This document shows positions 34,950 through 61,071 of a DNA stretch of 64,000 nt, one piece after another. The stretch lies in contig CAXXWX010000023.1 in NCBI GenBank assembly GCA_963675745.2, positions 96,001-160,000 of the forward strand, given 5' to 3'. Both the position numbers and the translations under genes were made by a program. The notes under the pieces were generated by a model. It was not told the origin of the DNA. It saw only the letters and a program-made list of their open reading frames with translations, and searched no databases. Each line of letters opens with the position of its first letter. Positions within the stretch are counted from its first letter, which is position 1. The DNA is from Phycisphaerae bacterium. GTDB taxonomy: Bacteria; Planctomycetota; Phycisphaerae; UBA1845; Fen-1342.

Positions 34950-36638
34950 CTATTCGAGGTAGCCCAGATCGCTGAGGCGCTGCTGCAGGATGCGCTTCTC
35001 TTCCTCGCTGTAAACCTCGTCGTGCGCCTCGGCCTCTTTCTTGATGGGCGGCTCATGCTCGACGACGAGCTTGGTGGAGAAGGCTCCGTCGATGACATGA
35101 CCTTCCATGTCGGCCGGCACGCGCAGACCCAGCAGCGCCAGCAACGTCGGGGCCACGTCGCCGATGTCCGCCGAAACGCGCACGCCGGGAGCGACATGCG
35201 GGCCGCCAATCGCCAGCACCCCCTCCACGCGGTGCGTGCCCTCCAGGCGTTTCAGTGACGACCAGCGCACCAGCCGGCTGCCGCGGATCTTACGCACGAC
35301 CGCGAGCCCCGGTTGCGGCACGAGCATCAGGTCGGGCAAGTCCGGGCTGTCATCGCGACTGCAACCGTACAGCTCTTCGGTCTTGTGGACTTCCGTGAAT
35401 ATCTTGACTGACTTGCCACGCGCGTTGCGCGTCTCGGCGCTGAGAAAGCGGGCGATCAGGTCGTCGCGAATCCGCTCGTAGTCAGCCGGGTCCACGATCC
35501 CGTGTGGGCCGCGGCCTTTGAGGTTGAGGTACAGGAAACCATAAATGCCCGCGTGCATTACACAGGCCTTGGTGCGTGACCAATCCACCGCCAGGTCGGA
35601 CTCGATGCCACGATTGCCCTGCTCGAAGCGCGTCATCTTGCCTTTGGAGAGGCGGTACAGCCAGTGGCGCGCGCGCGTCGCCGCCCGCTGTAGCGGGCTG
35701 TCGAGCGACAGGTAGCCCCAGCGGTGCAGCAGCAGATTCGCCTGGGCCTTTCCGTCGAGACTGCCATGCCCGTGGTCGGACATGATCAGCACGCCGGCTT
35801 CGCGCTGCTCGGCATACTTGAAAAACTTGAGCAACACGTCATCGAGGCGGCTGAAACACGCCGCGGCCATCTCCGCCTGCCGCGGGTAGTTCTTGTTGAA
35901 ACGCGGGTCCAGATACTTCCACGCCTTGTGCTGCAGGTTATCGACCAGCTTGAACATGACCATCAACACATCCCAGCCGTAGCGTTCGCCGCAGTAGCGC
36001 GCCAGATCCCAGCCCTGGTCAAAGCTGTTGGATATGTAGTCGAGGTTGGTGGCCAGCACGTCCTGCCCGCCGAGCGCCTTGCGCTGCCAGTTCGTGCGAT
36101 AGTTGTAATGCGGCAGGACGTCGAAAATCTCCTGCTTCAGTTCACGCGGATAGGTGAATTCCGCGTCGATGCTGGGGGTCTCAAAGCCGCTGATCATGAA
36201 GCCGTTGACCGGATGGGGTGGATAGGTCATCGGCACGTTGATGCTGCCGACGCGCAGCCCCTTGTCGCTGAGTATCTGCCAGATGGTTTTTTCGCGAATC
36301 TCATAGGTGCTGTTGAACGAGAGCTGTCCGTCCGCGACGCTGTACTTCTCGAAGTCGATGATGCCGTGGCGTCCGGGCCCCTTGCCGGTCATGAAGGTCG
36401 TCCAGGCGGCCGGTGTGATCGGCGGCATCGTCGAGCGCAGCACGCCCGCCGCGCCGTTGGCCACAAAACGCTTCAGGTTTGGCATACGGCCGGACTCCAT
36501 CATCGGGTCCAGCACGTCAAACGTGGCGCCGTCGAGCCCCAGAATCAAAACCCGTTTGAGAATCGGCTTGAGCGGCCGAGGTGCGGATGCCTCCGGCATG
36601 GCCTGGGGTGCCCGCACCGCCGCGGTTGTCTCACTCAT
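34950..36638 (-). CDS. AlkP-superfamily phosphodiesterase/phosphohydrolase (nucleotide pyrophosphatase type), cytoplasmic, with LxxLGYxE tail
   Basis: LGLDGAT, STMPPITPAAWTTFMTG, DNLQH, MSDHGH, GTHR; ends EEEKRILQQRLSDLGYLE. Confidence 0.9.
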   Translation of the reverse strand: MSETTAAVRAPQAMPEASAPRPLKPILKRVLILGLDGATFDVLDPMMESGRMPNLKRFVANGAAGVLRSTMPPITPAAWTTFMTGKGPGRHGIIDFEKYSVADGQLSFNSTYEIREKTIWQILSDKGLRVGSINVPMTYPPHPVNGFMISGFETPSIDAEFTYPRELKQEIFDVLPHYNYRTNWQRKALGGQDVLATNLDYISNSFDQGWDLARYCGERYGWDVLMVMFKLVDNLQHKAWKYLDPRFNKNYPRQAEMAAACFSRLDDVLLKFFKYAEQREAGVLIMSDHGHGSLDGKAQANLLLHRWGYLSLDSPLQRAATRARHWLYRLSKGKMTRFEQGNRGIESDLAVDWSRTKACVMHAGIYGFLYLNLKGRGPHGIVDPADYERIRDDLIARFLSAETRNARGKSVKIFTEVHKTEELYGCSRDDSPDLPDLMLVPQPGLAVVRKIRGSRLVRWSSLKRLEGTHRVEGVLAIGGPHVAPGVRVSADIGDVAPTLLALLGLRVPADMEGHVIDGAFSTKLVVEHEPPIKKEAEAHDEVYSEEEKRILQQRLSDLGYLE

Positions 36639-36883
36639 TTCGCTCACCTCGCTGCACAACCGCGCTGCCGGCCGAATCCCGCCACCGCCGGCACGCGGTC
36701 AGGTTGATGTGTGAGTATACGCCTCCTCGTTGTTTCTGTCATGCGCCGCCCGATTCGACCGCAAACCGGGCGCGGGCGAGATGTAGCGGCCACGACCTTA
36801 CTTCCCGGGCTCTTTGCGGATAACATCAGCGGATAAGCAGATCCCCCTGATCGGCTGACTTCCTGGTCGCGAGGTGGCTGGCC

Positions 36884-40566: not shown

Positions 40567-42744
40567 ATGAAGCGCGGCCGGCGCTCGAAGCACGATGGCC
40601 AAACCACCCCGGCGCCGCCCGGCGACCTTGGCCGCGAAGCACCGGGCGCGCCTCGCTGGAGTCGTGGACCGTGGTTGGCCGCCGCGCTGGCAACTGTCGC
40701 TTTTGTCCCCGCGCTGATGAACGATTTTACGTATGACGACATCCCCATCATTCGCGACAACATCCGCCTGCACGATCCAGCCAATATCCCGACATTGTGG
40801 TTGAGCGATTACTGGCGACCCGCCGGTGAAGATGCGCGCGTGCTCGACGCGCGGCGTGACCGGCTCTATCGCCCACTGGCGATGACCACCTATGCCCTCA
40901 ATCTCGCCCTGCACGGCGCGCGGCCCGCGGGCTTTCTGCTGGTCAATCTTCTTCTGCACGCGCTCGCCGCCGCGCTCGTCTGGCATGTCGCCCACCTGCT
41001 GCTCCATGATCGAGCGACCGCGACCTGCGCCGCACTGCTGTTCGCGCTGCACCCGATTCATGTCGAGGCCGTCGCCAATATTGTGGGCCGGGCGGAATTG
41101 CTCGGAGCCGTGGGCATGCTCGCCGGCCTGCTTGTGCTCTTGCGCGGGTCGCGCCCTCCCGGCATCCGCGCCGCGGTCGTCGCCAGCGCGCTGTTCTTCA
41201 TGGCACTGGCGTCGAAGGAGTCGGCCATCTGCTACCCGGTGGTCGCGCTGATCGCGCTGCTGGCCAGGGGCCACAGCGCTCGACCCGCAACCTGGTCACG
41301 GCGGATCACGCTCACGGCTGTTCTGCTCGTGCCCGTCGCGGTCTATCTCCCGCTGCGCTACGCCGCGCTCGGCGGACACCTGACGCGTATCGCACCGCCC
41401 AGTCACTACGGTAACCCGCTTACGGTGGCCACGCCGCTTCAGTGCTTCGTGGGTGTCTTCACAATAATCGGTAATTACGCGCGACTACTCGTGCTTCCCA
41501 ATCGCCTCAGTGCGGACTATGGCCTGGCGGTGATTGATCCGGCCGCCGGCGTAAACGCCATGACCATACTGGGAGCGCTGGTATCGCTTGCGACGCTCGT
41601 CGCGCTGCTCGGCATCTTCCGGCCCGGCCGACCCGTGCGGATCGTCGCGACGCTGGCCGCCATCTTCGTCGCCAGCTATGTCCTGATTTCCAACGCCTTC
41701 CTGACCATTGGCGTCACGCTCGCCGAGCGGTTGATGTACTGGCCATCTGTGCCCTTTTTGATGGTGGCGTCGGTGGGCATCATGGCGGCGTGGCGAAAGA
41801 TCAGTCGCGCAAACGAGGCGAAACCAGCCACCGCACGTCTCATCGGCGTTGCCGGCGTGGCGGTGCTGGCGGCGTTGGGGTTGCGCAGCTCGATCCGGGC
41901 AACGGACTGGCAGTCCAACCTGACGCTCTTCGAGACCGACGTCAGAACACACCCCCAGAGCATACACATCAACCTCAACCTCGCCGAAGCCCTGGTGAAC
42001 AAGCCCGCGCGCTCGGCCGAAGACTTGCGGCGTGCCGACGAGTGCATCGCACGCGCCCTCGAGATTTCGCCGCGAACGCTCGACGCGTTGCAACTCGGCG
42101 GCATTGTGGCGTACCTGCTGAAGGACAACGCCCGCGCCGCGCGTTACCTCGAGCTGGCCACGAGTCTCGGGCCGGTCGATGAGCTGTCGCAGGAAATACT
42201 CGCCGAAGTGCGCGGCGCCGCCGCCGAGGCGAACGACCGCATAACCGCTCTGCGCGCGCTGACGGCGCGCGATGCCGGAAACACCGCACTACACCTGGAA
42301 CTCGGCGAAGTACTGCTCAGCGTTGGGCGATACCGCGACGCGTTTGAGTCGGCCCAGACCGCCCAGCAACAGGATCCGGAAAGCCCGGCGGCCAACTGGC
42401 TACTGGCCCGCGCCGCTATCGGAACGGACCAAACGCCGCGCGCCGTGGCCGCGCTACGGCGGGTTGTTGCGGCCGATCCTGAAAACTGGCGGGCACACAC
42501 GCAGCTCGCGGTGCTGCTGCACATCGCCGCCCCGCGGCAGGCACTCGACCACGCGCGGATTGCACACCAGCTCGCCCCGGCCGAGCTGGAGACCAATCAA
42601 AACCTCGCGGAAGTGCTGGTCGCCAACGGTCGGATTGACGAGGCGATCGAGCGATTTCGGCTCATTGAGCGCGGTTTGCCGGAAGGTGATCCGCTGCGCG
42701 CCGCAGTCGCCGCGCGCATCGCAGACCTGGAACAAGACCGGTAG
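40567..42744 (+). CDS. TMTC-like GT-C glycosyltransferase (putative protein O-mannosyltransferase) with C-terminal TPRs
   Basis: FTYDD, LYRPL, LFALHPIHVEAVANIVGRAE, SKE, LSADY, AERLMYWPS, then TPRs. Confidence 0.85.
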   Translation: MKRGRRSKHDGQTTPAPPGDLGREAPGAPRWSRGPWLAAALATVAFVPALMNDFTYDDIPIIRDNIRLHDPANIPTLWLSDYWRPAGEDARVLDARRDRLYRPLAMTTYALNLALHGARPAGFLLVNLLLHALAAALVWHVAHLLLHDRATATCAALLFALHPIHVEAVANIVGRAELLGAVGMLAGLLVLLRGSRPPGIRAAVVASALFFMALASKESAICYPVVALIALLARGHSARPATWSRRITLTAVLLVPVAVYLPLRYAALGGHLTRIAPPSHYGNPLTVATPLQCFVGVFTIIGNYARLLVLPNRLSADYGLAVIDPAAGVNAMTILGALVSLATLVALLGIFRPGRPVRIVATLAAIFVASYVLISNAFLTIGVTLAERLMYWPSVPFLMVASVGIMAAWRKISRANEAKPATARLIGVAGVAVLAALGLRSSIRATDWQSNLTLFETDVRTHPQSIHINLNLAEALVNKPARSAEDLRRADECIARALEISPRTLDALQLGGIVAYLLKDNARAARYLELATSLGPVDELSQEILAEVRGAAAEANDRITALRALTARDAGNTALHLELGEVLLSVGRYRDAFESAQTAQQQDPESPAANWLLARAAIGTDQTPRAVAALRRVVAADPENWRAHTQLAVLLHIAAPRQALDHARIAHQLAPAELETNQNLAEVLVANGRIDEAIERFRLIERGLPEGDPLRAAVAARIADLEQDR

Positions 42745-43188: not shown

Positions 43189-43731
43189 TCAGCTCTCCAG
43201 TCGTCGCACCTGCTTGATCATGGGTGGCACAACCGGCAACGAATCTTCGGCCATCTGCGGATTGTACTTGGTCTCCACATCCTTGATGCGGTCAACGACA
43301 TCCTGCCCATCCACGACCTGGCCGAACACGCAATACCCCCAGCCATCCTGACCCGGATAATCAAGCATGGTGTTGTCGGCCACATTGATGAAGAACTGCG
43401 AAGTGGCCGAGTGCGGATCAGCCGTGCGCGCCATGGCGATGGTGCCCAGCTTGTTGTTCAGCCCGTTGGCGGATTCACACTCGATCGGCTCGCGCAGCCC
43501 CTCACCCTTGGGCTGGGCGTCGGCCGTATACCCGCCGCCCTGGATCATGAACGTGGGTATAACGCGATGAAACACGGTCTCGTCGAAGAACTTGTCATCG
43601 ACGTATTGCAGGAAGTTCTCGACCGTCTTGGGGGCGGCCTCAGCGTCGAGCTCGAGCACGATCGCGCCCCACGCCTCATCTCCCGATACGATGTCGAGCG
43701 CAACACGCGGTTTGCCGGCGGATGCGGCCAT
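43189..43731 (-). CDS. Cyclophilin-type peptidyl-prolyl isomerase (PpiA/PpiB type)
   Basis: [45 protein letters not shown]. Confidence 0.93.
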   Translation of the reverse strand: MAASAGKPRVALDIVSGDEAWGAIVLELDAEAAPKTVENFLQYVDDKFFDETVFHRVIPTFMIQGGGYTADAQPKGEGLREPIECESANGLNNKLGTIAMARTADPHSATSQFFINVADNTMLDYPGQDGWGYCVFGQVVDGQDVVDRIKDVETKYNPQMAEDSLPVVPPMIKQVRRLES

Positions 43732-43856
43732 ATGATGTCTCCGTCAAGGTGCCAAGCTGGTACCGTTTCCAGCCAGACCGGGTCACGCGTTCAGCGCTGT
43801 AGCGGCCTGCGCCTCCGCAGGCCGTCGGTGTCATACGGCGCCTCCGACTCCCGGCG

Positions 43857-44986
43857 CTACTTGATGCCCAGCAGCTCGATGTCGAAAACGAGCGTCGCCT
43901 TGGGCGGGATTGTCGGCGGACGACCGCGCTCGCCATATGCCAGCTCGTACGGGATAACCAGTTTGTGCTTGCCGCCGACCTTCATCAGCCCGACGCCTTC
44001 GGTCCAACCCGAGATGACGCCCGTCAGGCGGAAGCTGGCGGGTGAGCCGCGATCGCGCGAGCTGTCGAACTTGGTGCCATCGACCAGCCAGCCCGTGTAG
44101 TGAACCTCGACAGTGTCGGACGGCTTGGGGCTAGGCCCGTCACCCTCTTCCAGAACCACGTACATCAATCCCGACTCGGTCTTCTGGATCTTCTTGCCCG
44201 TCTCGGTCTCGATTTTGGCGATCAGGTCGGTCAATTTCTTGGTCTCCCGGGCTTTCAGTGCGGCTTCCTCTTCCATTTTCGCGCGCCTGGCCTGCTCGAA
44301 CTTGGCCCCCAGCTTCTTGCGGTCGAACTCACCTGTGATCTTCACGCTCTTGATGATGACCGCCGCATCCGGCGTAACGCCCGGTCCCTGCACGGGGTAC
44401 TTGGGGTGAACGATGCAAGGCGTCTCGCGGATCTTGTCAACGACATCCATGCCCTCGACGACCTTGCCGAATACGGCGTAGGCCGCCCCATCCCGCTGCG
44501 GGCGATCGAGTCGCTCATTGTCGACCACGTTGATGAAGAACTGGGAGGTGGCCGAGTCCGGCTTGCCGCCCTGCCGGGCCATCGCGACCGTGCCGCGCAT
44601 GTTCTTGAGCCCGTTCTTCCATTCGTTGGGAATGCCCTCGCGGAGCCCCTCCTTCTTGACGTCCATATCAGCGGTGAACCCGCCACCCTGGATCATGAAC
44701 GTCGGGATTACGCGGTGAACAATCGTATCGTTGTAGTACCCATCCTCGGCGTAACGGATGAAGTTGTAGCAACTGTACGGGGCCTTCTCGATGTCCAGCT
44801 CGAAGACGATCTTGCCCAGAGGCTCGCCCTTCTGCTCGATCATCAGTTCGGCGCGCGGCAGGGCCGTCGCCTTGGCATCCTCGGTCTTGGCCGGTCCTCA
44901 TCCTGCGCCACGGCGGCGACTGCGAGCAGTGCCGTGCAAATGCCGATCGCGTACATGAGGTTGCGTGTGTTCGCTCTTCTCATTTC
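43857..44986 (-). CDS. Secreted cyclophilin-FKBP fusion PPIase; signal peptide separated by a frameshift near 44895
   Basis: Cyclophilin ([22 protein letters not shown]) plus FKBP ([32 protein letters not shown]); upstream frame encodes MRRANTRN...AVAAVAQDE. Confidence 0.88.
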
Positions 44987-45088: not shown

Positions 45089-46366
45089 TCATACCTGCCT
45101 TGAGGCGGCCTTTGTCCAGAGCCGTCCTTCACCGCGTGCCGTACCGACTGGATCGTGCGTTACGACAAAAGCGGCCGCTGCTGAGATAATCATGAACGGC
45201 ATCAGCGGCACACGATAGCGCAAACTTCCGATATAGATGCAGTGTACGAGCGTGAAATAGGCGATCGGCAGCCACAGCAGCACAATCAGCAGCCGCCGGC
45301 GCCGACGTGCGCTGGGTGAGCCCAACTGCCCGACCAGGCGAAACACACCGACAAGCGAGGCGACGATCACCGGCAGCATGAACGCGGCGCTGACCAGCCC
45401 GGCCAGGCCGCCCCGGTATTGCTCGTAATTCGGGCGCGGATTCCACGTGCGCGCAAATTTCACGCCCGCCAGCCGTACCACGCGATACGGATCATGCCAC
45501 ATGTGGCGTCTGGCGAGTGCTCCCAGTCGGCGATCGACCTGAACCTCATCAAGCGCGGCCAATTCGGGCATGTGCTGGAGGAAGGATTGGTCACTGGCCC
45601 CGGTCGCTTGTGGGCCCTGCGCGTCATACAGCGTCACGCCGCCGTTGGTGCTCAGCCAGGCATAGCTGCCAATCACCAGGCGATTGCGCAACCCCCAGGG
45701 CAGCAGCAATGCGACGCACACCAGGCCAAGGCCGATCATGCGGTAAGCCGCCCGAATCCTGTTCTCGGAGAAGAGCCACAGAACCAGCCAGATAAGTGGG
45801 ATCCAAGCCGCCGCGGACGGTCGAGTCAGTATTGCAATCGGCCCTAATAGCGCCAAAGCGACCAACCCGCGCCGGCTGATCTCGTGCGGCCGCCTCAGCG
45901 TCATCCACGCCGTGTACGTCAGCCCCACGCCCGCGAGCGTGAACAGCACCTCCGTCAACAGCAGGTTGCAGAAGAAGATGCTGTATGGATCGCAGGCCGC
46001 CAACAGGCCGGCGATCAGGCCGGGACGCCGGCCGAGCGCTTCCTGTGCGAACCGATACACCAGCCACGCCGTGATCGCCCCGATGACAGCCTGCGCCAGG
46101 CGTGCGGCGAGGATGCCACCGGGGCCGCGCCACGCAAACAGTGCCAGGAACAGAGGATACAGCGGCATGCGCGCCGCATAGCGGCCGTCGTCGGTGGCCA
46201 GGATTCCGTCGCCGACCAGGTTCTGCGCCAGTTGCCAGTGCAGCGCTTCGTCGTCGAACTCGAGCGTCGGTGCCGCGCCGGCGGCGCGCCACACGACCCA
46301 TGCCAGCCGCAGCACCAGCGCGACCAGGAACACCCAGAAACCGGCGTTGCCGGACACGGTTCTCAT
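45089..46366 (-). CDS. ArnT/PMT-like GT-C (family 39/83-like) glycosyltransferase
   Basis: Polytopic; FDDE, RMPLYPLFLA, LLLTE, TRP, PWGLRN, STNGG, RYRVP. Confidence 0.85.
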   Translation of the reverse strand: MRTVSGNAGFWVFLVALVLRLAWVVWRAAGAAPTLEFDDEALHWQLAQNLVGDGILATDDGRYAARMPLYPLFLALFAWRGPGGILAARLAQAVIGAITAWLVYRFAQEALGRRPGLIAGLLAACDPYSIFFCNLLLTEVLFTLAGVGLTYTAWMTLRRPHEISRRGLVALALLGPIAILTRPSAAAWIPLIWLVLWLFSENRIRAAYRMIGLGLVCVALLLPWGLRNRLVIGSYAWLSTNGGVTLYDAQGPQATGASDQSFLQHMPELAALDEVQVDRRLGALARRHMWHDPYRVVRLAGVKFARTWNPRPNYEQYRGGLAGLVSAAFMLPVIVASLVGVFRLVGQLGSPSARRRRRLLIVLLWLPIAYFTLVHCIYIGSLRYRVPLMPFMIISAAAAFVVTHDPVGTARGEGRLWTKAASRQV

Positions 46367-48352: not shown

Positions 48353-50599
48353 GTGGAAAGGCAACAGATGTCGTGGCAATCTTCGGGCAGCCGACGTGCA
48401 ATACGCGCATGCGGCGCCTCCGGTACCGGTGCCGGCGAGGTGTTTCTGAGACGCGGGTTACTCGCGGCGTGCATTGTATATGCGCTCGCCAGCCCCGCGG
48501 AGGCATATATCGGCCCGGGAGCGGGTTTTGCGATCGCTTCCTCGTTTCTGACCGTGCTGGCGACGATGGCGCTGGCCCTGCTGGGGCTGATGCTGTGGCC
48601 GATCAACTGGTTGATCCGGTCAATCAGAGGACGCCGGGCCTTCGCAAAGGCCCGGATAAAGCGTCTGGTAATATTGGGCCTCGACGGCCTGGAACCCAGC
48701 CTCGTTGACCGCTTCATGGGCGAAGGCAAGCTGCCGAATCTGGCCAAGCTGAAAGAAACGGGTGGGTTCAGCCTGCTGGGCACAGTTTTACCACCACTGT
48801 CACCGGTGGCGTGGTCGACGTTTCTAACCGGCACAAACCCTGGCAAACACAATGTTTACGACTTCCTGAACTCCGACCGGCGCACCTACCTGCCCAGCCT
48901 GTCCTCAGTTCTGATCCGCCCGCCGACCAAGACCTTCAAGCTCGGCAAGTACGTTTTCCCGCTCAACAAGCCCGAGATTCGCCTGCTGCGCAAGGGCAAG
49001 CCATTCTGGCACACGCTGGGCGACCACGGCATATTCAGCTCGGTGATTCGCGTGCCGATCACGTTTCCGCCCGAGAAGTGCCGCGGCGTCGTTCTGTCCG
49101 CCATGTGCGCTCCCGACCTGCGCGGCACACAAGGGTTGTTCTCATTCTACAGCACACGTTCGGATGACAGCGAGGAGCGTACCGGCGGCGAGCAGATCCG
49201 CGTGCAGCGCGAAGGCGATCTGATTCGCTCTGAGCTTGTCGGGCCAGACAACAGCGTGGTGCTCGGCGAAGGCCCGATGAAAATCCCGTTCGAGGTGCGC
49301 ATCGCCGGCGAACGGGCGACCCTGCACATCGAAGGCGATCAGTATGACCTCGAGCCCGGAATCTACACGCCTTGGATAACCGTCAACTTCCGGGCCGGCA
49401 TGGGCATATCCGTTCAGGGCGTATGTCGTTTCATGCTGGTAAGAACGCAGCCCGAGTTCGAGCTGTACGTGATGCCGATCAACATCGATCCAGAGAAGCC
49501 GGCCATGCCGATCTCGCACCCGGTGGCGTACAGCACGTATCTCTCAAAGCGCTTCGGGTCGTTCGCAACACTCGGATTGGCCGAAGACACCTGGGCGCTG
49601 AACGAGGACTTGATCGACGACCAGGCATTCGTCGATCAGTGCATGTTCATCGACAGCGAGCGCGAGCAGCAGTTCTTCGACGCGATCGACAACACCGGCA
49701 ACGGGCTGGTGGTCTGTGTCTTTGACGGCACCGATCGGCTGCAGCACATGTTCTGGCGCTATTTGGAAGATGATCATCCGGCGCACCCCAAGAACCTCCA
49801 CCCCGAAACGTACAAACCCAATGGCAGCGAGCGGGTGCTTGAAGAGCTGTATATGCGCATGGACAAGCTCGTCGGCGAAACGATGGAGCGGACAGTCAAG
49901 CGCGACAAGAACACGGTGTTGATGGTCCTGTCCGATCACGGATTCTGCTCGTTCCGCCGCGGCCTGGATCTCAACGCCTGGCTAATCGAAAACGGCTACA
50001 TGAAGCTCAAGCCGGACGCCAAGCCGGGTGCCCAGTATCTCGCCGCGGTGGATTGGGAACACACGCGCGCGTACACGCAGGGATTGGCCGGGATGTTCAT
50101 CAACCAGAAGGGCCGCGAGGCCCAAGGTATCGTCGAGCCCGGCGAGGAAATGCAGAAGCTGAAGGACGAGATCAGCGCAAAGCTGACCGGCTTGCGCGAT
50201 CCGGCGAATGATGAGATTGCCATTCGCCGCGTGTTCGACAAGGAAAAGTCATATCAAGGCCCGTATCGCGCCACGGCCCCCGACCTGGTGATTGGATATA
50301 ACCGTGGCTATCGCATTGCGTGGGACACCGCGATCGGTAAAGTAACCGGCTCGGTCTTTCACGATAATACGAAGGCGTGGAGCGGCGACCACTGCATCGA
50401 CCCGGAACTGATCCCGGGCGTGATGTTCTGTAGCCACAAAATCGAGAGCGAGTCGCCGCGGCTGATGGATCTGGGGCCGACGGCGCTGGATCTGTTCGGC
50501 ATCGCGGTTCCCGCCAACATGGATGGCCGGCCGCTGAAGATCGCCGTTGGAAACGGGCATACCGCCGGAAAAACCGCGCCGGTCGCCGCGGCGGGGTAG
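48353..50599 (+). CDS. AlkP-superfamily phosphodiesterase with signal peptide-AYIGPGAG-TM N-terminus (start may be 48440)
   Basis: LGLDG, PPLSPVAWSTFLTG, DRLQHMFW, LSDHGF, WSGDH; no LGY tail. Confidence 0.9.
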   Translation: MERQQMSWQSSGSRRAIRACGASGTGAGEVFLRRGLLAACIVYALASPAEAYIGPGAGFAIASSFLTVLATMALALLGLMLWPINWLIRSIRGRRAFAKARIKRLVILGLDGLEPSLVDRFMGEGKLPNLAKLKETGGFSLLGTVLPPLSPVAWSTFLTGTNPGKHNVYDFLNSDRRTYLPSLSSVLIRPPTKTFKLGKYVFPLNKPEIRLLRKGKPFWHTLGDHGIFSSVIRVPITFPPEKCRGVVLSAMCAPDLRGTQGLFSFYSTRSDDSEERTGGEQIRVQREGDLIRSELVGPDNSVVLGEGPMKIPFEVRIAGERATLHIEGDQYDLEPGIYTPWITVNFRAGMGISVQGVCRFMLVRTQPEFELYVMPINIDPEKPAMPISHPVAYSTYLSKRFGSFATLGLAEDTWALNEDLIDDQAFVDQCMFIDSEREQQFFDAIDNTGNGLVVCVFDGTDRLQHMFWRYLEDDHPAHPKNLHPETYKPNGSERVLEELYMRMDKLVGETMERTVKRDKNTVLMVLSDHGFCSFRRGLDLNAWLIENGYMKLKPDAKPGAQYLAAVDWEHTRAYTQGLAGMFINQKGREAQGIVEPGEEMQKLKDEISAKLTGLRDPANDEIAIRRVFDKEKSYQGPYRATAPDLVIGYNRGYRIAWDTAIGKVTGSVFHDNTKAWSGDHCIDPELIPGVMFCSHKIESESPRLMDLGPTALDLFGIAVPANMDGRPLKIAVGNGHTAGKTAPVAAAG

Positions 50600-50611
50600 C
50601 CGCTGAGTGAG

Positions 50612-52663
50612 TTGGATATGCGCATAGCCGCCGCCGTAATAATCGTCGTCGTGAACCTGTTCGCGCTGATCTTCTTCTGGCCGAGTGGCGAAGGGGAAGA
50701 TGTGCGGCCACAGGCGGGGCGCGGCGATGGCAAAAAGGTGTTCATACTCGGGTGTGATGGGCTGGATGCCGAGCTCATCGAACGGATGCTGCGCGAGGGG
50801 CGCCTGCCGAACATGGCCAAGCTGGCCGCCAAGGGTGGATTTCGACCGCTCACGACCAGCATTCCGCCGCAAAGCCCCGTTGCCTGGTCGAACTTCATCA
50901 CGGGCGCCGGCCCCGGCGTACACGGCATCTTTGACTTCATTCACCGCGAGCCGGACAAGCAGTACGCCCCGTACTTCTCCACCAACTACTTCGCCCAAAA
51001 ACACAATTGGTGGATCACCAGGAAGCTGATTCCCGAAACGGTCGGCGGATATGTGCTGCGCGGCACCACACAGAACACGCTCATGCGCAAGGGTACGCCG
51101 TTCTGGGACTATCTCGACACGGCCGGCATCAAGGTCGACCTGTATCGCTTGCCGGCGAATTACCCCCCCAGCAAGTCGAAGTACGGCAACGTACGCTGCC
51201 TGCCGGGCATGGGTGTACCCGACGCGGTCGAGACCGGCACACAGGGAACCTACCAGCAGTTCACCACCAAACCGCGACGCGAGGTCGAACTGGGCGGCGG
51301 CAAGAAGTTCAAACTGCGGCGTGATCCAAAGACGCGCGCATATGTCGGCACGCTGCGCGGGCCGTCGAACATGTTGCTCGCCGACGCGCCCAACATGACG
51401 CTCGATTTCAGCGTGTACCGCGACCCCGAGCGCGACGCCGCGATCATAACCTATGAGAACAAGGGTATTGCCGGCACCGAAGAGGTGAGCATCCCGCTGA
51501 ACGTCGGGGAGTGGAGCGACTGGGTATATGTCGACTTTCCGCAAACCGGCCTGCGTGTTCCGGCGATGCGCACGATGGCGCGTTTCCTGCTACAGGGCGT
51601 GCGACCGCACGTGGACGTGTACGTCACGCCGCTGAACTTCGCGCCTGACGCGGCCCCGCCGGACTTCAGCGAGCCGTCCGACTTTGTCAAAGATATCGGC
51701 GAGGGGATCGGGCCTTTCTACACGCAGGGATTCGCTGAGGACTTCAAGGCCCGTGACCAGAACGTGTTGAGCGACGAGGAGTTTCGCCAGCAGGCCGAAC
51801 TCGTGCTTGACGAGCGAATGAAAATGCTGGACTTCGCGCTCGACAATTACGTGGACGGGCTGCTGTTCTTCTACTTTTCCAGTTCCGACTTGCAGGCGCA
51901 CATCTACTGGTGGGAATCAACCGATGAGCACCCGATCCGCTCATGGGAGGATGCGCAGCGCTTCAACCGCGTGGTCGAAGACGTCTACGTCAGGCTCGAC
52001 GAAGCGCTCGGCCACAGCCTGGAGCGGCTCGGCGAAGACCTCACCGTAATCGTCATGTCCGATCACGGATTCGGCAACTTCGGGCGCGGATTCGCGCTGA
52101 ACACGTGGCTGCGCGAGGAGGGCTACCTCGTCGCCGATCGCGGTCTCCTGTTCGACTGTGACTGGTCGCAGACGCGCGTATACGGCCTGGGCCTGAACGG
52201 GTTGTACCTGAACCTCAAGGGCCGTGAGCCCGAGGGCATCGTCGATCCGGCCGAAGCCGATGAGCTGCTTGACGAATTGTGCGACAAGCTGGTGGCCCTG
52301 CGTGACCCCGAGAACGGCCGACAGGTTATTCTCCGGTGTTACAAGACCAAGGACTGGTATCACGGCCCCGAGGCGGTCAACGCGCCCGACATCATTGTCG
52401 GATACGGCGCGGGGTATCGCTCGAGTTGGAATACGGCGTTGGGCGATTTCGACAAAAGCGTCGTGGTGCCGAATCACAGCGCCTGGAGCGCCGACCACTG
52501 CGTGGCGCGCGAGCTTGTGCCGGGCATCGTCATCGCCAACCGGCCGATCAATCGCGCTGACCCCGCCCTGATCGACCTGGCACCGACTATTCTCGGAGAG
52601 TTTGGGCTACCCACGCCCGAGACCATGACTGGACGCAACATTTTCGGGGCGCCGGAGGAGTGA
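50612..52663 (+). CDS. AlkP-superfamily phosphodiesterase with N-terminal signal anchor
   Basis: LGCDG, PPQSPVAWSNFITG, DLQAH, MSDHGF, WSADH; no LGY tail. Confidence 0.9.
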   Translation: MDMRIAAAVIIVVVNLFALIFFWPSGEGEDVRPQAGRGDGKKVFILGCDGLDAELIERMLREGRLPNMAKLAAKGGFRPLTTSIPPQSPVAWSNFITGAGPGVHGIFDFIHREPDKQYAPYFSTNYFAQKHNWWITRKLIPETVGGYVLRGTTQNTLMRKGTPFWDYLDTAGIKVDLYRLPANYPPSKSKYGNVRCLPGMGVPDAVETGTQGTYQQFTTKPRREVELGGGKKFKLRRDPKTRAYVGTLRGPSNMLLADAPNMTLDFSVYRDPERDAAIITYENKGIAGTEEVSIPLNVGEWSDWVYVDFPQTGLRVPAMRTMARFLLQGVRPHVDVYVTPLNFAPDAAPPDFSEPSDFVKDIGEGIGPFYTQGFAEDFKARDQNVLSDEEFRQQAELVLDERMKMLDFALDNYVDGLLFFYFSSSDLQAHIYWWESTDEHPIRSWEDAQRFNRVVEDVYVRLDEALGHSLERLGEDLTVIVMSDHGFGNFGRGFALNTWLREEGYLVADRGLLFDCDWSQTRVYGLGLNGLYLNLKGREPEGIVDPAEADELLDELCDKLVALRDPENGRQVILRCYKTKDWYHGPEAVNAPDIIVGYGAGYRSSWNTALGDFDKSVVVPNHSAWSADHCVARELVPGIVIANRPINRADPALIDLAPTILGEFGLPTPETMTGRNIFGAPEE

Positions 52664-52693
52664 CCGTTCGAGCGAGGTGGTTGATTGAGCAGC

Positions 52694-52743
52694 GTGGCTT
52701 GGGCGTCGCGCCCGAGGCGTCACAGGCGCGACGCCTGTGCCAC
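52694..52743. repeat. REP-like inverted doublet
   Basis: GTGGC-TTGGGCG tcg CGCCCGAG ... CACAGGCG cga CGCCTGTG-CCAC. Confidence 0.7.
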
Positions 52744-52786
52744 CGGTGTCCCACCGCCGCCCGCTTGTGTTATACAGGAGCACGCG

Positions 52787-52987
52787 ATGTTTGGCGGAAA
52801 CGTGAAGATTGACAAGCACCTGCTGGAGCGGGTCAAGAAGTACTCGAAGATCGCCGGCTATGGCACGCCCGATGAGTTTATCACGCATTGCCTCGAAAAG
52901 GAGCTCGAGCAGCTCGAAGCCGGCGAAGGTGGCGACGACGAACAGGCCATCATGGAACGTCTGCGCGGCCTGGGATACATTGAATAA
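52787..52987 (+). CDS. 66-aa RHH-like protein ending in LxxLGYxE
   Basis: AGGAG RBS; VKIDKHLLERVKKYSKIAGYGTPDEFITHCLEKEL is ribbon-helix-helix-like; tail DEQAIMERLRGLGYIE. Confidence 0.85.
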   Translation: MFGGNVKIDKHLLERVKKYSKIAGYGTPDEFITHCLEKELEQLEAGEGGDDEQAIMERLRGLGYIE

Positions 52988-53023
52988 TCCGGGCGCTACC
53001 CGGACGGAGCGATCAAGCAACCA

Positions 53024-53860
53024 ATGAACGTCGTCCTCGATGCGATCACGTTTTTGATGAACGGCATCGGCCGGGTGCTGTTTGTCACCGGCGGATTCCT
53101 CTCGCCCGCGCTCACGCTGCTGTTGATCTCGCAGGTGCTCGCGATCGGCATGCTGTATCTGTGGCGGTATACATCCAACCAGGACGCGATCGCCGCCGGT
53201 CGCCGAAAGATCTCCGCCTATCTGATGGCGACGTTGCTGTTCAAGGACAACCTGCGCGTCATGTTCCGCTCGCAACGGGTGATTCTGTGGGAGACGCTGA
53301 GAGTATTGGGGTACAGCGTTCCGCCCATGATTGTCATGCTGATCCCGTTTGCGTTAATCGTGGCGCAGATCGGGTTGCGCTACGAGTTTGACATGGCCCC
53401 CACCGGCCGGACCATTAACGTGCTGGCGCAGCTCAAATCACCCGATGGTCTCGACAAGGGTGGCGACCAGCTCAGCCTGCCCGACGGTGTGCGCAGCGCC
53501 CCGCTCGACCCGGTCCGCGCCGCGCCGATCGGCACGGTTACCTGGCGCCTCACCGCCGACAATCCGGGGGTCTACACGCTCAAATTCGGAGACGGGGACG
53601 ATGTTGTCGAGATGCCGCTGGCGGTCGGCGATGGGTTCCAACGCATCAGCGCCGTGCGGGGCGGTGGCGTTCTCACGCGGCTGATGTACTCGGCGTTGCC
53701 ATCCATACCGGCCGACTCGGTCTTCAAAGAGATCCGCATCGACTATCCGAAACGCTCGACATCTCTGTTCGGGTTTGACTGGCACTGGCTGATCTGGGTG
53801 CTGGTGCTATCGATCGTCTTCGGCTTTTTGTGGAAACCGGTGCTGAACGTGCAGATCTGA
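53024..53860 (+). CDS. DUF106/EMC3/TMCO1-like (Oxa1 superfamily) membrane protein with extracytoplasmic beta domain
   Basis: Amphipathic N-helix, TM1, basic coiled coil, TM2 (PPMIVMLIP), beta-rich insert, C-terminal HWLIWVLVLSIVFGFLWKPVL. Confidence 0.65.
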   Translation: MNVVLDAITFLMNGIGRVLFVTGGFLSPALTLLLISQVLAIGMLYLWRYTSNQDAIAAGRRKISAYLMATLLFKDNLRVMFRSQRVILWETLRVLGYSVPPMIVMLIPFALIVAQIGLRYEFDMAPTGRTINVLAQLKSPDGLDKGGDQLSLPDGVRSAPLDPVRAAPIGTVTWRLTADNPGVYTLKFGDGDDVVEMPLAVGDGFQRISAVRGGGVLTRLMYSALPSIPADSVFKEIRIDYPKRSTSLFGFDWHWLIWVLVLSIVFGFLWKPVLNVQI

Positions 53861-59355: not shown

Positions 59356-60033
59356 ATGTTGAAATTGGGCGTGCTGGCGCTGGTGCTGGCCATGTCGAGC
59401 GCGGCCTCGGCGGTCGTGGTTGACGACTTCACGGACGGCGGCATCAGCCTGACCGCCATCGATCTTATCGGACAAACGGAGAGTCAGGTGGGGCTCGACC
59501 CTAACACGGTCCTCGGCGGCGGACGCGACATCTACGTCGGCGCGACCGCCGGCGCCACTGTCGGCACACAGTTGGTCATCGACGATGTCGCCGGCGAACT
59601 CAGTCTGACGTCTGACCCGGTCCAGCGCGGCTACATGACACTCGAGTACATTGTCGCCGACGCTCAGGGACTCGATCTCACGGCGGAAGCCGGCAACGAC
59701 CGCATCAGTCTCGACGTCGTGAACGTGACGCAGGGCATTTCCAGCGGCGTTTTCGACCTGAAGATCGAAAGCGGCCCGTTGGGAAACACGGTGTCCGAAT
59801 CGACCAGCTTCGGCCCCGGTCGGCTCTGGGATCTGCCGGGCAGCGGCGTGGTGGACGTGCCGTACGCGGATTTCACGTCAACGGACTTTACGCAGGTGCG
59901 GGCGATCTCGATCGACATCGCGCGCTTCCCCGCCGACGCCAACCTGACGCTCGGCGGCATCGCGACGACGCCGGAGCCGGCTTCGATCATGGCGCTGCTG
60001 GTGCTGACCGCGCTGGCCCGCCGCCGCCGTTAG
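59356..60033 (+). CDS. PEP-CTERM secreted protein
   Basis: Signal peptide, VVDDF...VLGGGRDI; TPEPASIMALLVLTALARRRR. Confidence 0.88.
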   Translation: MLKLGVLALVLAMSSAASAVVVDDFTDGGISLTAIDLIGQTESQVGLDPNTVLGGGRDIYVGATAGATVGTQLVIDDVAGELSLTSDPVQRGYMTLEYIVADAQGLDLTAEAGNDRISLDVVNVTQGISSGVFDLKIESGPLGNTVSESTSFGPGRLWDLPGSGVVDVPYADFTSTDFTQVRAISIDIARFPADANLTLGGIATTPEPASIMALLVLTALARRRR

Positions 60034-60227: not shown

Positions 60228-60408
60228 TCGAGCTCAGCGAGACGTGGCGGTGCCCGGCAATACAGGCAGATCCCCCAGCGCGGCGGGTGTAAGCTCTCGC
60301 ATGCCTTGATTACCGATAACTGGAAGCCATAGGATTGGGTGGTCGTCGCCATGGGGTGGGCGCGGTCCGCCGGCGGCGGTGGGATCGGGATATCAAGGAG
60401 CCAGGCTG

Positions 60409-61071
60409 ATGTTACGCATCGTGATCGCGCTGGCTTTGTGCAGTGGCGCCGTGGCCGGCGCGGCGCCGTACTCCGTGTCATACGAGGGTAACGTACTGCC
60501 GGAGGATGACGGCTGGGAGCGCTTCCACGGCTACGACGATAACGAGGCCGATCGATACATCGACAACGGCGTGCTGGTCATCGATTCGATGCACGATGGC
60601 CAGGTTTACGACTACGTGACACACGACGCCTCGCCGGCGACCGCGATGGAGCCGGGTGAACTCCTTGTCGTCGAGTGGCGCACCTACTTGGCCGCCACGG
60701 AGGGTCGCGACGCCATTTTCGCCCTGATCCTTGGGGATTGGACCGAGGATTTCACGCTCGGGTATGACCACGTCCACCTGGGTTGGCTGCGAATCAACGT
60801 CCCGGTCACTCCGGAAGTGTGGCATACCTACCGCATTGAGATGACGCCGTCGTATTCATACATCTTCTTCATCGACGCTGAACCGCGGGTCCAGGCATCG
60901 CTGTTCGAGGTGCCGGATGACCGCGAGATCATCGCGTTTGGGGACGGCGCAATCGGTGCCAGGTCAATATCTCACTGGGACTACGTTCACTGTGACGTTG
61001 TTCCAGAGCCTGGAACGACGGTTCTGCTGCTCGTGTGCGTTCACGGGTGGATTCGCAGGTTTCTCACATGA
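60409..61071 (+). CDS. PEP-CTERM-like secreted protein (degenerate tail)
   Basis: AAGGAG RBS, signal peptide, YEGNVLPEDDGW, IAFGDG..WDYV; VPEPGTTVLLLVCVHGWIRRFLT. Confidence 0.8.
   Translation: MLRIVIALALCSGAVAGAAPYSVSYEGNVLPEDDGWERFHGYDDNEADRYIDNGVLVIDSMHDGQVYDYVTHDASPATAMEPGELLVVEWRTYLAATEGRDAIFALILGDWTEDFTLGYDHVHLGWLRINVPVTPEVWHTYRIEMTPSYSYIFFIDAEPRVQASLFEVPDDREIIAFGDGAIGARSISHWDYVHCDVVPEPGTTVLLLVCVHGWIRRFLT

Follow-up and report, generated by a model that had tools for sequence, protein, structure and literature searches.

A conserved four-gene membrane cassette of Planctomycetota joins two paralogous alkaline-phosphatase-superfamily enzymes to an Oxa1-like protein and may relay activated sulfate

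What does a bacterium do with two paralogous enzymes of the alkaline phosphatase (AlkP) superfamily, encoded side by side with a 66-amino-acid (aa) protein and a small membrane protein of the Oxa1 superfamily? The question is raised by a 64,000-nucleotide (nt) stretch of DNA from a Phycisphaerae bacterium of the Planctomycetota (GenBank assembly GCA_963675745.2, contig CAXXWX010000023.1, positions 96,001 to 160,000 of the forward strand), here called the window. An earlier note, made from the sequence alone, had singled out four closely spaced, co-oriented genes at 48353..53860 as a candidate undescribed membrane system. We confirm that observation, and its interpretation is partly supported. 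All four genes lie on the plus strand, separated in gene order by gaps of 18, 123 and 36 nt. The genes, and the segment by which the first enzyme is held in the membrane, are as follows (NPP, nucleotide pyrophosphatase/phosphodiesterase; TM, transmembrane; RHH, ribbon-helix-helix).

48353..50599, plus strand: AlkP1, 748 aa, NPP-type two-metal alkaline-phosphatase-superfamily enzyme
48506..48619, plus strand: YxGPGAG motif at the mature N-terminus of AlkP1 with its TM helix (mature residues 1-38), which packs on the Oxa1-like protein in the complex model
50618..52663, plus strand: AlkP2, 681 aa from ATG, AlkP1 paralogue with an N-terminal signal anchor
52787..52987, plus strand: 66-aa soluble protein with a probable RHH core (residues about 6-43), an acidic linker and a C-terminal LxxLGY
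53024..53860, plus strand: Oxa1-superfamily 3-TM protein of the DUF106/Ylp1/EMC3/TMCO1 type, 278 aa

The four genes are a conserved, dedicated membrane cassette. A scan of GTDB with the membrane protein as query returned 30 loci, and the microprotein gene lies directly upstream of the membrane gene in 29 of them (the 30th is truncated by the start of its contig). AlkP2 is present in 28 of these loci and AlkP1 in 21; where AlkP1 was not seen, six contigs end first, two carry another gene at that position and one has no AlkP in 1.6 kb. Searching metagenomes with the microprotein as query confirmed 469 relatives. Among the best 80 of these, from which our counts are taken, the membrane gene is next to the microprotein in 79 (the contig of the 80th ends 50 nt later) and an AlkP in 68, the microprotein of the other 12 being within 300 nt of the contig start. 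We also surveyed an even set of 201 genomes of the phylum, scoring five AlkP1 candidates per genome. The membrane protein (E<1e-30) is present in 26 of them, and exactly these 26 have a full AlkP1 orthologue, which in two cases is split over contig ends. This grouping is far beyond chance. The neighbourhood survey of the proteins encoded at 52787 and 53024, which had been suggested as a check on the idea of a dedicated module, found genes that co-occur widely, not rarely. The closest named relatives are Planctomycetota, mostly Phycisphaerae, and the names of Atlas clusters and of sequence sources extend the range to Acidobacteriota, Aminicenantota, Thermodesulfobacteriota and Gemmatimonadota. 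The membrane-protein profile matches 2,676 clusters at 50% identity, a count that includes distant relatives.

The 278-aa protein is a bacterial member of the Oxa1 superfamily, of the DUF106/Ylp1 type. Three TM segments and Oxa1 membership had both been read from the sequence, and both readings hold. Hydropathy gives three hydrophobic segments (18-36, 99-117 and 256-274), and the structural model (predicted local distance difference test, pLDDT, 97.2) has membrane helices at 28-50, 77-120 and 255-274. A 139-row profile of the family matches MJ0480/Ylp1 (PDB 5C8J, E 2.1e-8) over TM1, coiled coil and TM2, and again over TM3; model helices 53-72 and 77-97 align with the MJ0480 region. PF01956 is matched by 10 of the 139 family members (best E 4.8e-8). 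The best structural match is chain 8 of 7TUT (Z 11.2, root mean square deviation 3.2, 134 aligned residues), with the next row at 7.8, the Z score of YidC (3WO7). Foldseek with the same model found nothing at E 0.001 and returned mainly immunoglobulin (Ig)-like domains. From the N-terminus, the protein consists of an amphipathic helix, TM1, a cytoplasmic coiled coil, TM2, an Ig-like beta-sandwich (about 121-250) and TM3. Since members of the superfamily are described as having their N-terminus outside and their coiled coil inside (PMC5868721), we predict that the Ig-like domain is periplasmic. A lipid-exposed hydrophilic groove is putative; polar residues that may bear on it are a Ser conserved at TM1 position 36, the likewise conserved S263, and Q115 of the family consensus. 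Proteins of the Oxa1 family have been reported to scramble lipids (bioRxiv 10.1101/2023.09.01.555937). A canonical YidC is encoded on another contig of the same genome, which rules out the cassette protein as a replacement for the YidC of the cell.

A second conserved cassette emerged among weak matches in other Planctomycetota (loci L171-L184). In it, a more distant Oxa1-like protein is accompanied by three partners, each found in 10-11 loci: a PPDK-like enzyme, an FG-GAP protein and a membrane protein with a PQQ-type propeller, which begins with an N-out helix motif. This suggests that this branch of Oxa1 proteins serves group-transfer machines more generally.

Both enzymes belong to the AlkP superfamily, as the earlier note had proposed. 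They match PF01663 with E 2.5e-30 (AlkP1) and 1.1e-36 (AlkP2), at 107 and 128 bits against a cut-off of 23. The motifs GxDG, SPVAWS, DxxxH, SDHG and WSxDH occur in both, and in alignments of 62 rows every residue of these motifs is either invariant or conserved to at least 90%. The predicted metal ligands and nucleophile are D60, S99, D410, H414, D477, H478 and H629 in AlkP1 (mature numbering) and D11, S50, D388, H392, D446, H447 and H591 in AlkP2 (alignment numbering), so that each enzyme keeps a serine nucleophile and a full two-metal ligand set. The two are 36% identical. In a tree built from every second row of the alignments together with 16 distant homologues and five fusion proteins, they form separate clades, each with Shimodaira-Hasegawa-like support of 1.0. 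In the AlphaFold model of AlkP1 (pLDDT 90.8), the mature chain from about residue 120 to 325 is a beta-rich insertion, some 200 aa long; it is the large insertion that had been noticed before. The folds nearest to this model are ENPP6, ENPP7, ENPP4, Xac NPP and PhnA (Z 26-28, top Z 27.8; ENPP6, ENPP7 and Xac NPP at Z 27-28), and sulfatases follow at Z 21.7 or less. No solved close relative of AlkP1 or AlkP2 was found in the structure search. We rejected a formylglycine sulfatase of the PF00884 type: the motif is SPVAW without Arg, unlike C/S-x-P-x-R, and AlkP1 reaches 13 bits, below the cut-off of 25, and AlkP2 has no match. AlkP1 and AlkP2 are members of the NPP/PhnA branch of the superfamily that depart from NPPs proper in two features, a Ser in place of the Thr nucleophile and a Phe in place of the Asn after HGIVH. 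In Xac NPP this Asn has a role in phosphate binding; at its column the cassette enzymes have an invariant Phe, with Asp just before.

The two enzymes differ sharply in their N-terminal targeting signals. AlkP1 begins with a signal peptide ending in AEA, followed by YxGPGAG, one TM helix and a basic stretch. The YxGPG motif is found in 70/70 orthologues with an intact N-terminus (71 in total, classed by BLAST score and not by the motif), and a signal-peptidase-like site precedes it in 64 of these. Across orthologues, the stretch after the helix has 436 K/R against 8 D/E. Y1, G3, P4, G5, A6, G7 and P32 are invariant in the 62 alignment rows, which were chosen on the motif, the unbiased count being that of the 70 orthologues. 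By a regular-expression and hydropathy heuristic, as opposed to a trained predictor, the N-termini of 84 AlkP2 orthologues are Tat-like in 16, lipobox-like in 45, otherwise hydrophobic in 21 and without signal in two. YxGPG is absent from all 84. Because of this difference in signals, the catalytic domain of AlkP1 is predicted to be cytoplasmic, and AlkP2 is predicted to be exported with its catalytic domain outside the inner membrane. Membrane anchors had been proposed for both enzymes, and anchors are indeed predicted; what had been missed is that they point in opposite directions. With opposite topologies, the two enzymes become a possible relay.

Modelling supports the binding of AlkP1 to the Oxa1-like protein. 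We co-folded mature AlkP1 with the membrane protein in three runs; agreement between runs is 74% of contacts or better, and the pLDDT of the partner is 78 or higher. The complex scores 0.75, compared with 0.00 for the best control; that mark is reached by 116/157 solved complexes and 2/215 mismatched pairs, counts that are rough since we supplied our own alignments. The interface comprises AlkP1 residues 6-38 (the TM helix) and catalytic-domain residues 339-349, which contact the cytoplasmic coiled coil and include the invariant P339, Y345 and L346. The most confident contacts are those of the folded catalytic domain with the coiled coil. They agree with the predicted topology and support a picture in which AlkP1 would be a stable subunit. 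Recall of a known complex is unlikely, because no close solved relative was found for either chain. The membrane complex envisaged in the earlier note is therefore supported, in the model, for AlkP1 with the Oxa1-like protein.

Genome context favors sulfate chemistry. The earlier note had left phosphodiester and sulfate transfer open, and the sulfate half of that alternative is the one to which the gene content points. Genes that recur beside the cassette encode ATP sulfurylase, APS kinase (APS, adenosine 5'-phosphosulfate), sulfatase-fold proteins, small soluble AlkPs and a P-loop sulfotransferase. For the counts we took loci with 4 kb or more of flanking sequence and left out two duplicates; ATP sulfurylase, APS kinase or sulfotransferase flank 13/33 metagenome and 16/24 phylum-sample loci (29/57 distant loci), compared with 0/15 loci of the second Oxa1-like cassette. 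The neighboring type of sulfotransferase is present in 10/26 cassette genomes and in 10/175 others. At 10 of 26, it is not supported as an obligatory fifth member. It is also found in one chain with the first enzyme: among the best 120 of 782 longer relatives of the sulfotransferase, 16 have it fused N-terminally to a full-length AlkP1 (four groups at 75% identity), with a joint that passes through the signal-peptide-like segment and the YxGPG helix. The fusion ties AlkP1 to an enzyme of the type that uses PAPS (3'-phosphoadenosine 5'-phosphosulfate). The genome studied here has one copy per sulfur query type in 5.2 Mb. Outside the cassette, some distant AlkP homologues adjoin CysN/CysD-like genes (two loci) or UbiA prenyltransferases (two loci, Pfam-confirmed). 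The latter, L199 and L215, have large-insert AlkPs without an Oxa1-like partner, and L199 also has DUF92; UbiA at these loci hints at a prenylated lipid as substrate or carrier.

The 66-aa protein has 809 homologues, many of them named CopG/Arc/MetJ by the Joint Genome Institute. It matches RHH domains weakly (NikR E 0.32, Arc E 0.97), its nearest family in the Atlas is RHH_1 at 0.88 (27% of cluster members) and the RHH-like core has a conserved K7; the core is probably an RHH. No Pfam family is matched by the 66-aa or the 278-aa protein, and no NCBIfam model reaches its cut-off for any of the four proteins. We found no conserved operator, as no palindrome is common to more than 3 of 64 regions upstream of AlkP1 genes, and the lone shared 8-mer is mostly coding sequence of the upstream gene.

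The most constant part of the microprotein is its tail. The Tyr of LGY is kept in 119/119 homologues and in 132/133 copies at the loci (one copy lacks the motif). Among 86 long fusions, 68 have the motif, all with the Tyr. Others that end in this tail are APS kinases, a CysD-like protein, small AlkPs, sulfatase-fold enzymes, further RHH proteins and small lipoproteins. LGY occurs in 71 of the 120 listed sulfotransferase fusions, mostly between AlkP and sulfotransferase domains, and in 0/16 of the AlkP1-type fusions. Given this absence, the microprotein appears to provide, in trans, the tail that is missing. AlkP1 and AlkP2 lack a C-terminal LGY, which is found in cis on one protein at the AlkP2 position (locus L073). 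An LGY-tail profile, trained partly on cassette loci, has a mean of 5.1 matches in the 26 cassette genomes compared with 0.5 in the 175 others. In the genome studied here, 7/11 sulfatase-fold proteins (contigs C10, C15 and C27 of G000, as we label this genome) have LGY after the catalytic domain. All seven have hydrophobic N-termini by eye and six have a Thr-x-Pro motif; two CxPSR sulfatases of the genome are without LGY. From these features, the LGY-tailed proteins are candidates for Agl30-like transferases mis-annotated as sulfatases. The AlkP-fold proteins Agl30 and Agl31 are reported to be required in vivo for glycan sulfation in Halobacterium, and the reverse primers for these two and for VNG1063H, likewise an AlkP-fold protein, place LGY at or near the protein ends (PMC11980604). 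There is precedent for a Tyr on a C-terminal peptide as a proven shuttle, in PatA/PatB (PMC12148441). The LGY Tyr may be such a modified carrier, or it may be a docking tag, a role that fits equally well.

Several other LGY proteins deserve mention. A second, distinct RHH-like LGY protein is encoded in the same genome (G000:C13:146202-146438; L190:8203-8439), and proteins of its type are encoded near APS kinase genes in many cassette loci. Near cassettes there are also helical, lipoprotein-like proteins, about 170 aa long, with LGY at their end (L092:839-1378, L158:14639-15166, L159:10764-11456 and L163:69-563); one was scanned against Pfam and had no match. The CysD-like LGY protein (L198:13842-14642) adjoins CysN, a sulfatase-fold gene and a large-insert AlkP.

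We propose as the most likely reading, with belief and doubt about evenly balanced, that the cassette is a trans-membrane relay of activated sulfate that decorates the cell envelope. The genes and their linkage, the catalytic residues, the targeting signals and the fusions are observed directly, and the complex is modelled. The chemistry that we infer would begin with APS or PAPS made in the cytoplasm. The cytoplasm-facing AlkP1 would accept the sulfuryl group on its catalytic serine; the donor would be APS/PAPS itself or a carrier charged by a PAPS-type sulfotransferase, and the 66-aa protein would supply the LGY tail that AlkP1 lacks, as a docking piece or as the carrier itself. In the model, the Oxa1-like protein holds AlkP1 through the TM helix and the cytoplasmic coiled coil. 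The sulfuryl group would then be loaded on a membrane carrier, probably a lipid, whose path across would be the putative groove of the Oxa1-like protein. AlkP2, exported and perhaps bound to the periplasmic Ig domain, would pick the group up and hand it to envelope acceptors or to exported LGY-tailed transferases of sulfatase fold.

A bolder form of the proposal, which we think unlikely as a whole, is a general periplasmic sulfation system. LGY would be a sulfotyrosine swinging arm, charged on the RHH-LGY protein by a PAPS sulfotransferase; AlkP1 would pass the group to a lipid carrier, the Oxa1-fold protein would flip that carrier as a dedicated scramblase, and AlkP2 would reload exported LGY tails. 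As part of the same joint conjecture, the exported threonine-type 'sulfatases' would really be sulfotransferases like Agl30. Such a system, if true, would explain how envelope polymers are sulfated where PAPS is absent, and would re-annotate a large class of 'sulfatases'.

Phospho-chemistry must be weighed against the relay of sulfate. The enzymes could be NPP-like phosphodiesterases or phospho-headgroup transferases that relay a phospho-group across the membrane, or that clear 3'-phosphoadenosine 5'-phosphate (PAP) and APS as by-products of sulfation, which would explain the sulfur neighbors. The phosphodiesterase folds rank above all sulfatases, both enzymes have the complete two-metal site, a CysQ-like gene lies in 2/24 phylum-sample loci and the second cassette couples its Oxa1-like protein with a PPDK-like phosphotransferase. 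We nevertheless judge this explanation improbable, given the invariant Phe, after Asp, at the Asn column of Xac NPP. By-product clearance has no need for an exported paralogue or an Oxa1-like partner, and the LGY tails tie the module to AlkP-fold proteins whose glycan sulfation is reported on genetic evidence (PMC11980604). There is a comparably small chance that no relay exists, and that the Oxa1-like protein is there solely to insert or chaperone the N-out helix of AlkP1, with the enzymes adding or removing sulfate independently on each face of the membrane. The modelled interface does involve the AlkP1 TM helix in the manner of a client, the simple N-out topology is of the kind described as inserted by Oxa1 proteins (PMC5868721) and the second-cassette partner likewise begins with an N-out helix motif. 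A passing client is, however, a poorer fit than a stable subunit to the strongest contacts, those of mature residues 339-349 with the coiled coil. A dedicated insertase also leaves the conserved periplasmic Ig domain unexplained, and it would work in a genome that has a canonical YidC. Where the cassette is split, in genome G025, the Oxa1-like gene remains with AlkP2, not with AlkP1, and the microprotein remains with AlkP1.

The traffic could also run inward, with the module serving in scavenging or turnover: AlkP2 would strip sulfate or phosphate off esters, whether external or of the envelope, either the product or a lipid intermediate would cross, AlkP1 would finish the hydrolysis and the RHH protein would regulate the operon. 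Hydrolase folds, sulfatase-fold neighbors in 22/81 cassette loci with at least 4 kb of flank and the RHH-like core with its conserved K7 are in keeping with this. We find it highly improbable when set beside neighbor genes that make or use activated sulfate, a sulfotransferase as the fusion partner of AlkP1, LGY-tailed sulfatase-fold proteins without the CxPxR motif in this genome and the lack of a shared operator upstream of 64 AlkP1 genes. The proposed relay of activated sulfate has its own evidence to contend with. The fold and metal site of AlkP1 and AlkP2 are of the phosphodiesterase type, not the sulfatase type, and the carrier lipid, the acceptor and the activity are all putative. None of the 24 loci of the window's own lineage is flanked by ATP sulfurylase, APS kinase or sulfotransferase, and the copies of these genes in this genome are all on other contigs. 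At E 1e-20, 16/26 cassette genomes have no match to the neighboring sulfotransferase type, and LGY matches occur in 39/175 genomes without the cassette. Linkage has exceptions too, since AlkP1 is non-adjacent in L023, L025, G004, G025 and G088, and in L020 the 1.6 kb upstream contain no AlkP gene. Related genomes in our counts are kin and hence not independent. More distant large AlkPs, without an Oxa1-like protein of this type, occur in about 60 other genomes of the sample; those AlkPs that we fetched fall outside both the AlkP1 and the AlkP2 clades.

Some details of the locus bear on its annotation. AlkP1 has an alternative ATG at 48368 with a better ribosome-binding site (by eye), which may be the true start, and the open reading frame caller starts AlkP2 at a TTG at 50612. 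The gap of 123 nt between AlkP2 and the microprotein compares with a median of 29 nt across loci and includes, at 52690-52760, an inverted repeat rich in GC (by eye), which may be a short element inserted there. A scan for promoters and terminators gave a result at chance level. Flanking genes were rejected as members of the system, as the loci of relatives do not retain the divergent tilS, the GT-C genes or the convergent pyroglutamyl peptidase. One further gene of the window encodes a possible functional partner outside the operon, 12 kb from the cassette:

34950..36659, minus strand: soluble PF01663 enzyme with an LGY tail in cis

The window also encodes two GT-C-like membrane proteins a few kb upstream of the cassette (40567-42744, plus strand; 45089-46366, minus strand), one of which is PMT_2 and one of which bears tetratricopeptide repeats (TPRs) with a weak TMTC match. 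GT-C/TPR genes of a similar kind flank some related loci. A cyclophilin-FKBP fusion followed by a second cyclophilin lies at 43189-44843 (minus strand), and two proteins with weak, below-cut-off PEP-CTERM matches are encoded at 59356-60033 and 60379-61071 (plus strand).

Each part of the cassette is a new member of a known superfamily, and the combination is apparently undescribed. No description of the cassette, of a bacterial DUF106 protein or of the LGY tail was found in the titles and abstract openings of open-licence full texts and preprints, in line with the earlier remark that no characterized pathway has this composition. If our reading is true, this is the first case we have found of an Oxa1/YidC-fold protein as a permanent part of an enzyme machine and not a general insertase. 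It would also be the first case that we have found of the archaeal/eukaryotic DUF106 type in Bacteria, and the cassette offers a testable route for moving activated sulfate across the bacterial inner membrane. It further suggests how AlkP-fold sulfotransferases might work, Agl30/31 among them, whose donor is unaddressed in the main text of PMC11980604 (the words 'PAPS' and 'donor' do not occur there).

Comparison with known systems shows where the cassette departs from them. NPPs (Xac NPP, 2GSN; ENPP4/6/7) and PhnA share with the cassette enzymes the AlkP core fold, the two-metal ligands and the position of the nucleophile. The cassette enzymes differ from them in having Ser instead of Thr, Phe instead of the NPP Asn and a beta-rich insertion, at 10-18% identity, and in being a paralogue pair on predicted opposite faces of the membrane. 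The envelope headgroup transferases LtaS, EptA/MCR-1, OpgB and BcsG have a membrane-bound AlkP domain outside the membrane and transfer a lipid-derived group via a Ser/Thr intermediate. They are structurally more distant from the cassette enzymes (Z about 16) and, unlike these, have a multi-TM domain and need no cytoplasmic twin. Among Oxa1-superfamily proteins, the archaeal Ylp1/MJ0480 (5C8J) and the eukaryotic TMCO1/EMC3/Get1 (PF01956) differ from the cassette protein, which is bacterial, whereas DUF106 has been described as archaeal and eukaryotic (PMC5868721). Further differences are the Ig-like domain that the cassette protein has between TM2 and TM3, its tie to enzyme genes and its coexistence with a canonical YidC; it has no EMC6-like partner gene within the four-gene cassette. 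The N-glycan sulfotransferases Agl30 (VNG1056C) and Agl31 (VNG1057C) of Halobacterium salinarum share the AlkP-superfamily fold. On the evidence of the paper and its primer sequences, they are sulfatase-like with LGY in cis, whereas AlkP1 and AlkP2 are NPP-like and tail-less, with LGY encoded next door on the 66-aa protein (PMC11980604). The closest parallel in working principle is with MBOAT-SGNH relays. In DltX, an invariant Tyr likewise stands on a short C-terminal peptide. In PatA/PatB and DltB/DltX/DltD, a group from a cytoplasmic donor is described as crossing to an outer enzyme via the invariant Tyr of a C-terminal peptide (PMC12148441). The cassette has no MBOAT or SGNH protein, its Tyr peptide is carried by a soluble, cytoplasmic, probable RHH protein, and the group relayed here would be sulfuryl, not acyl.

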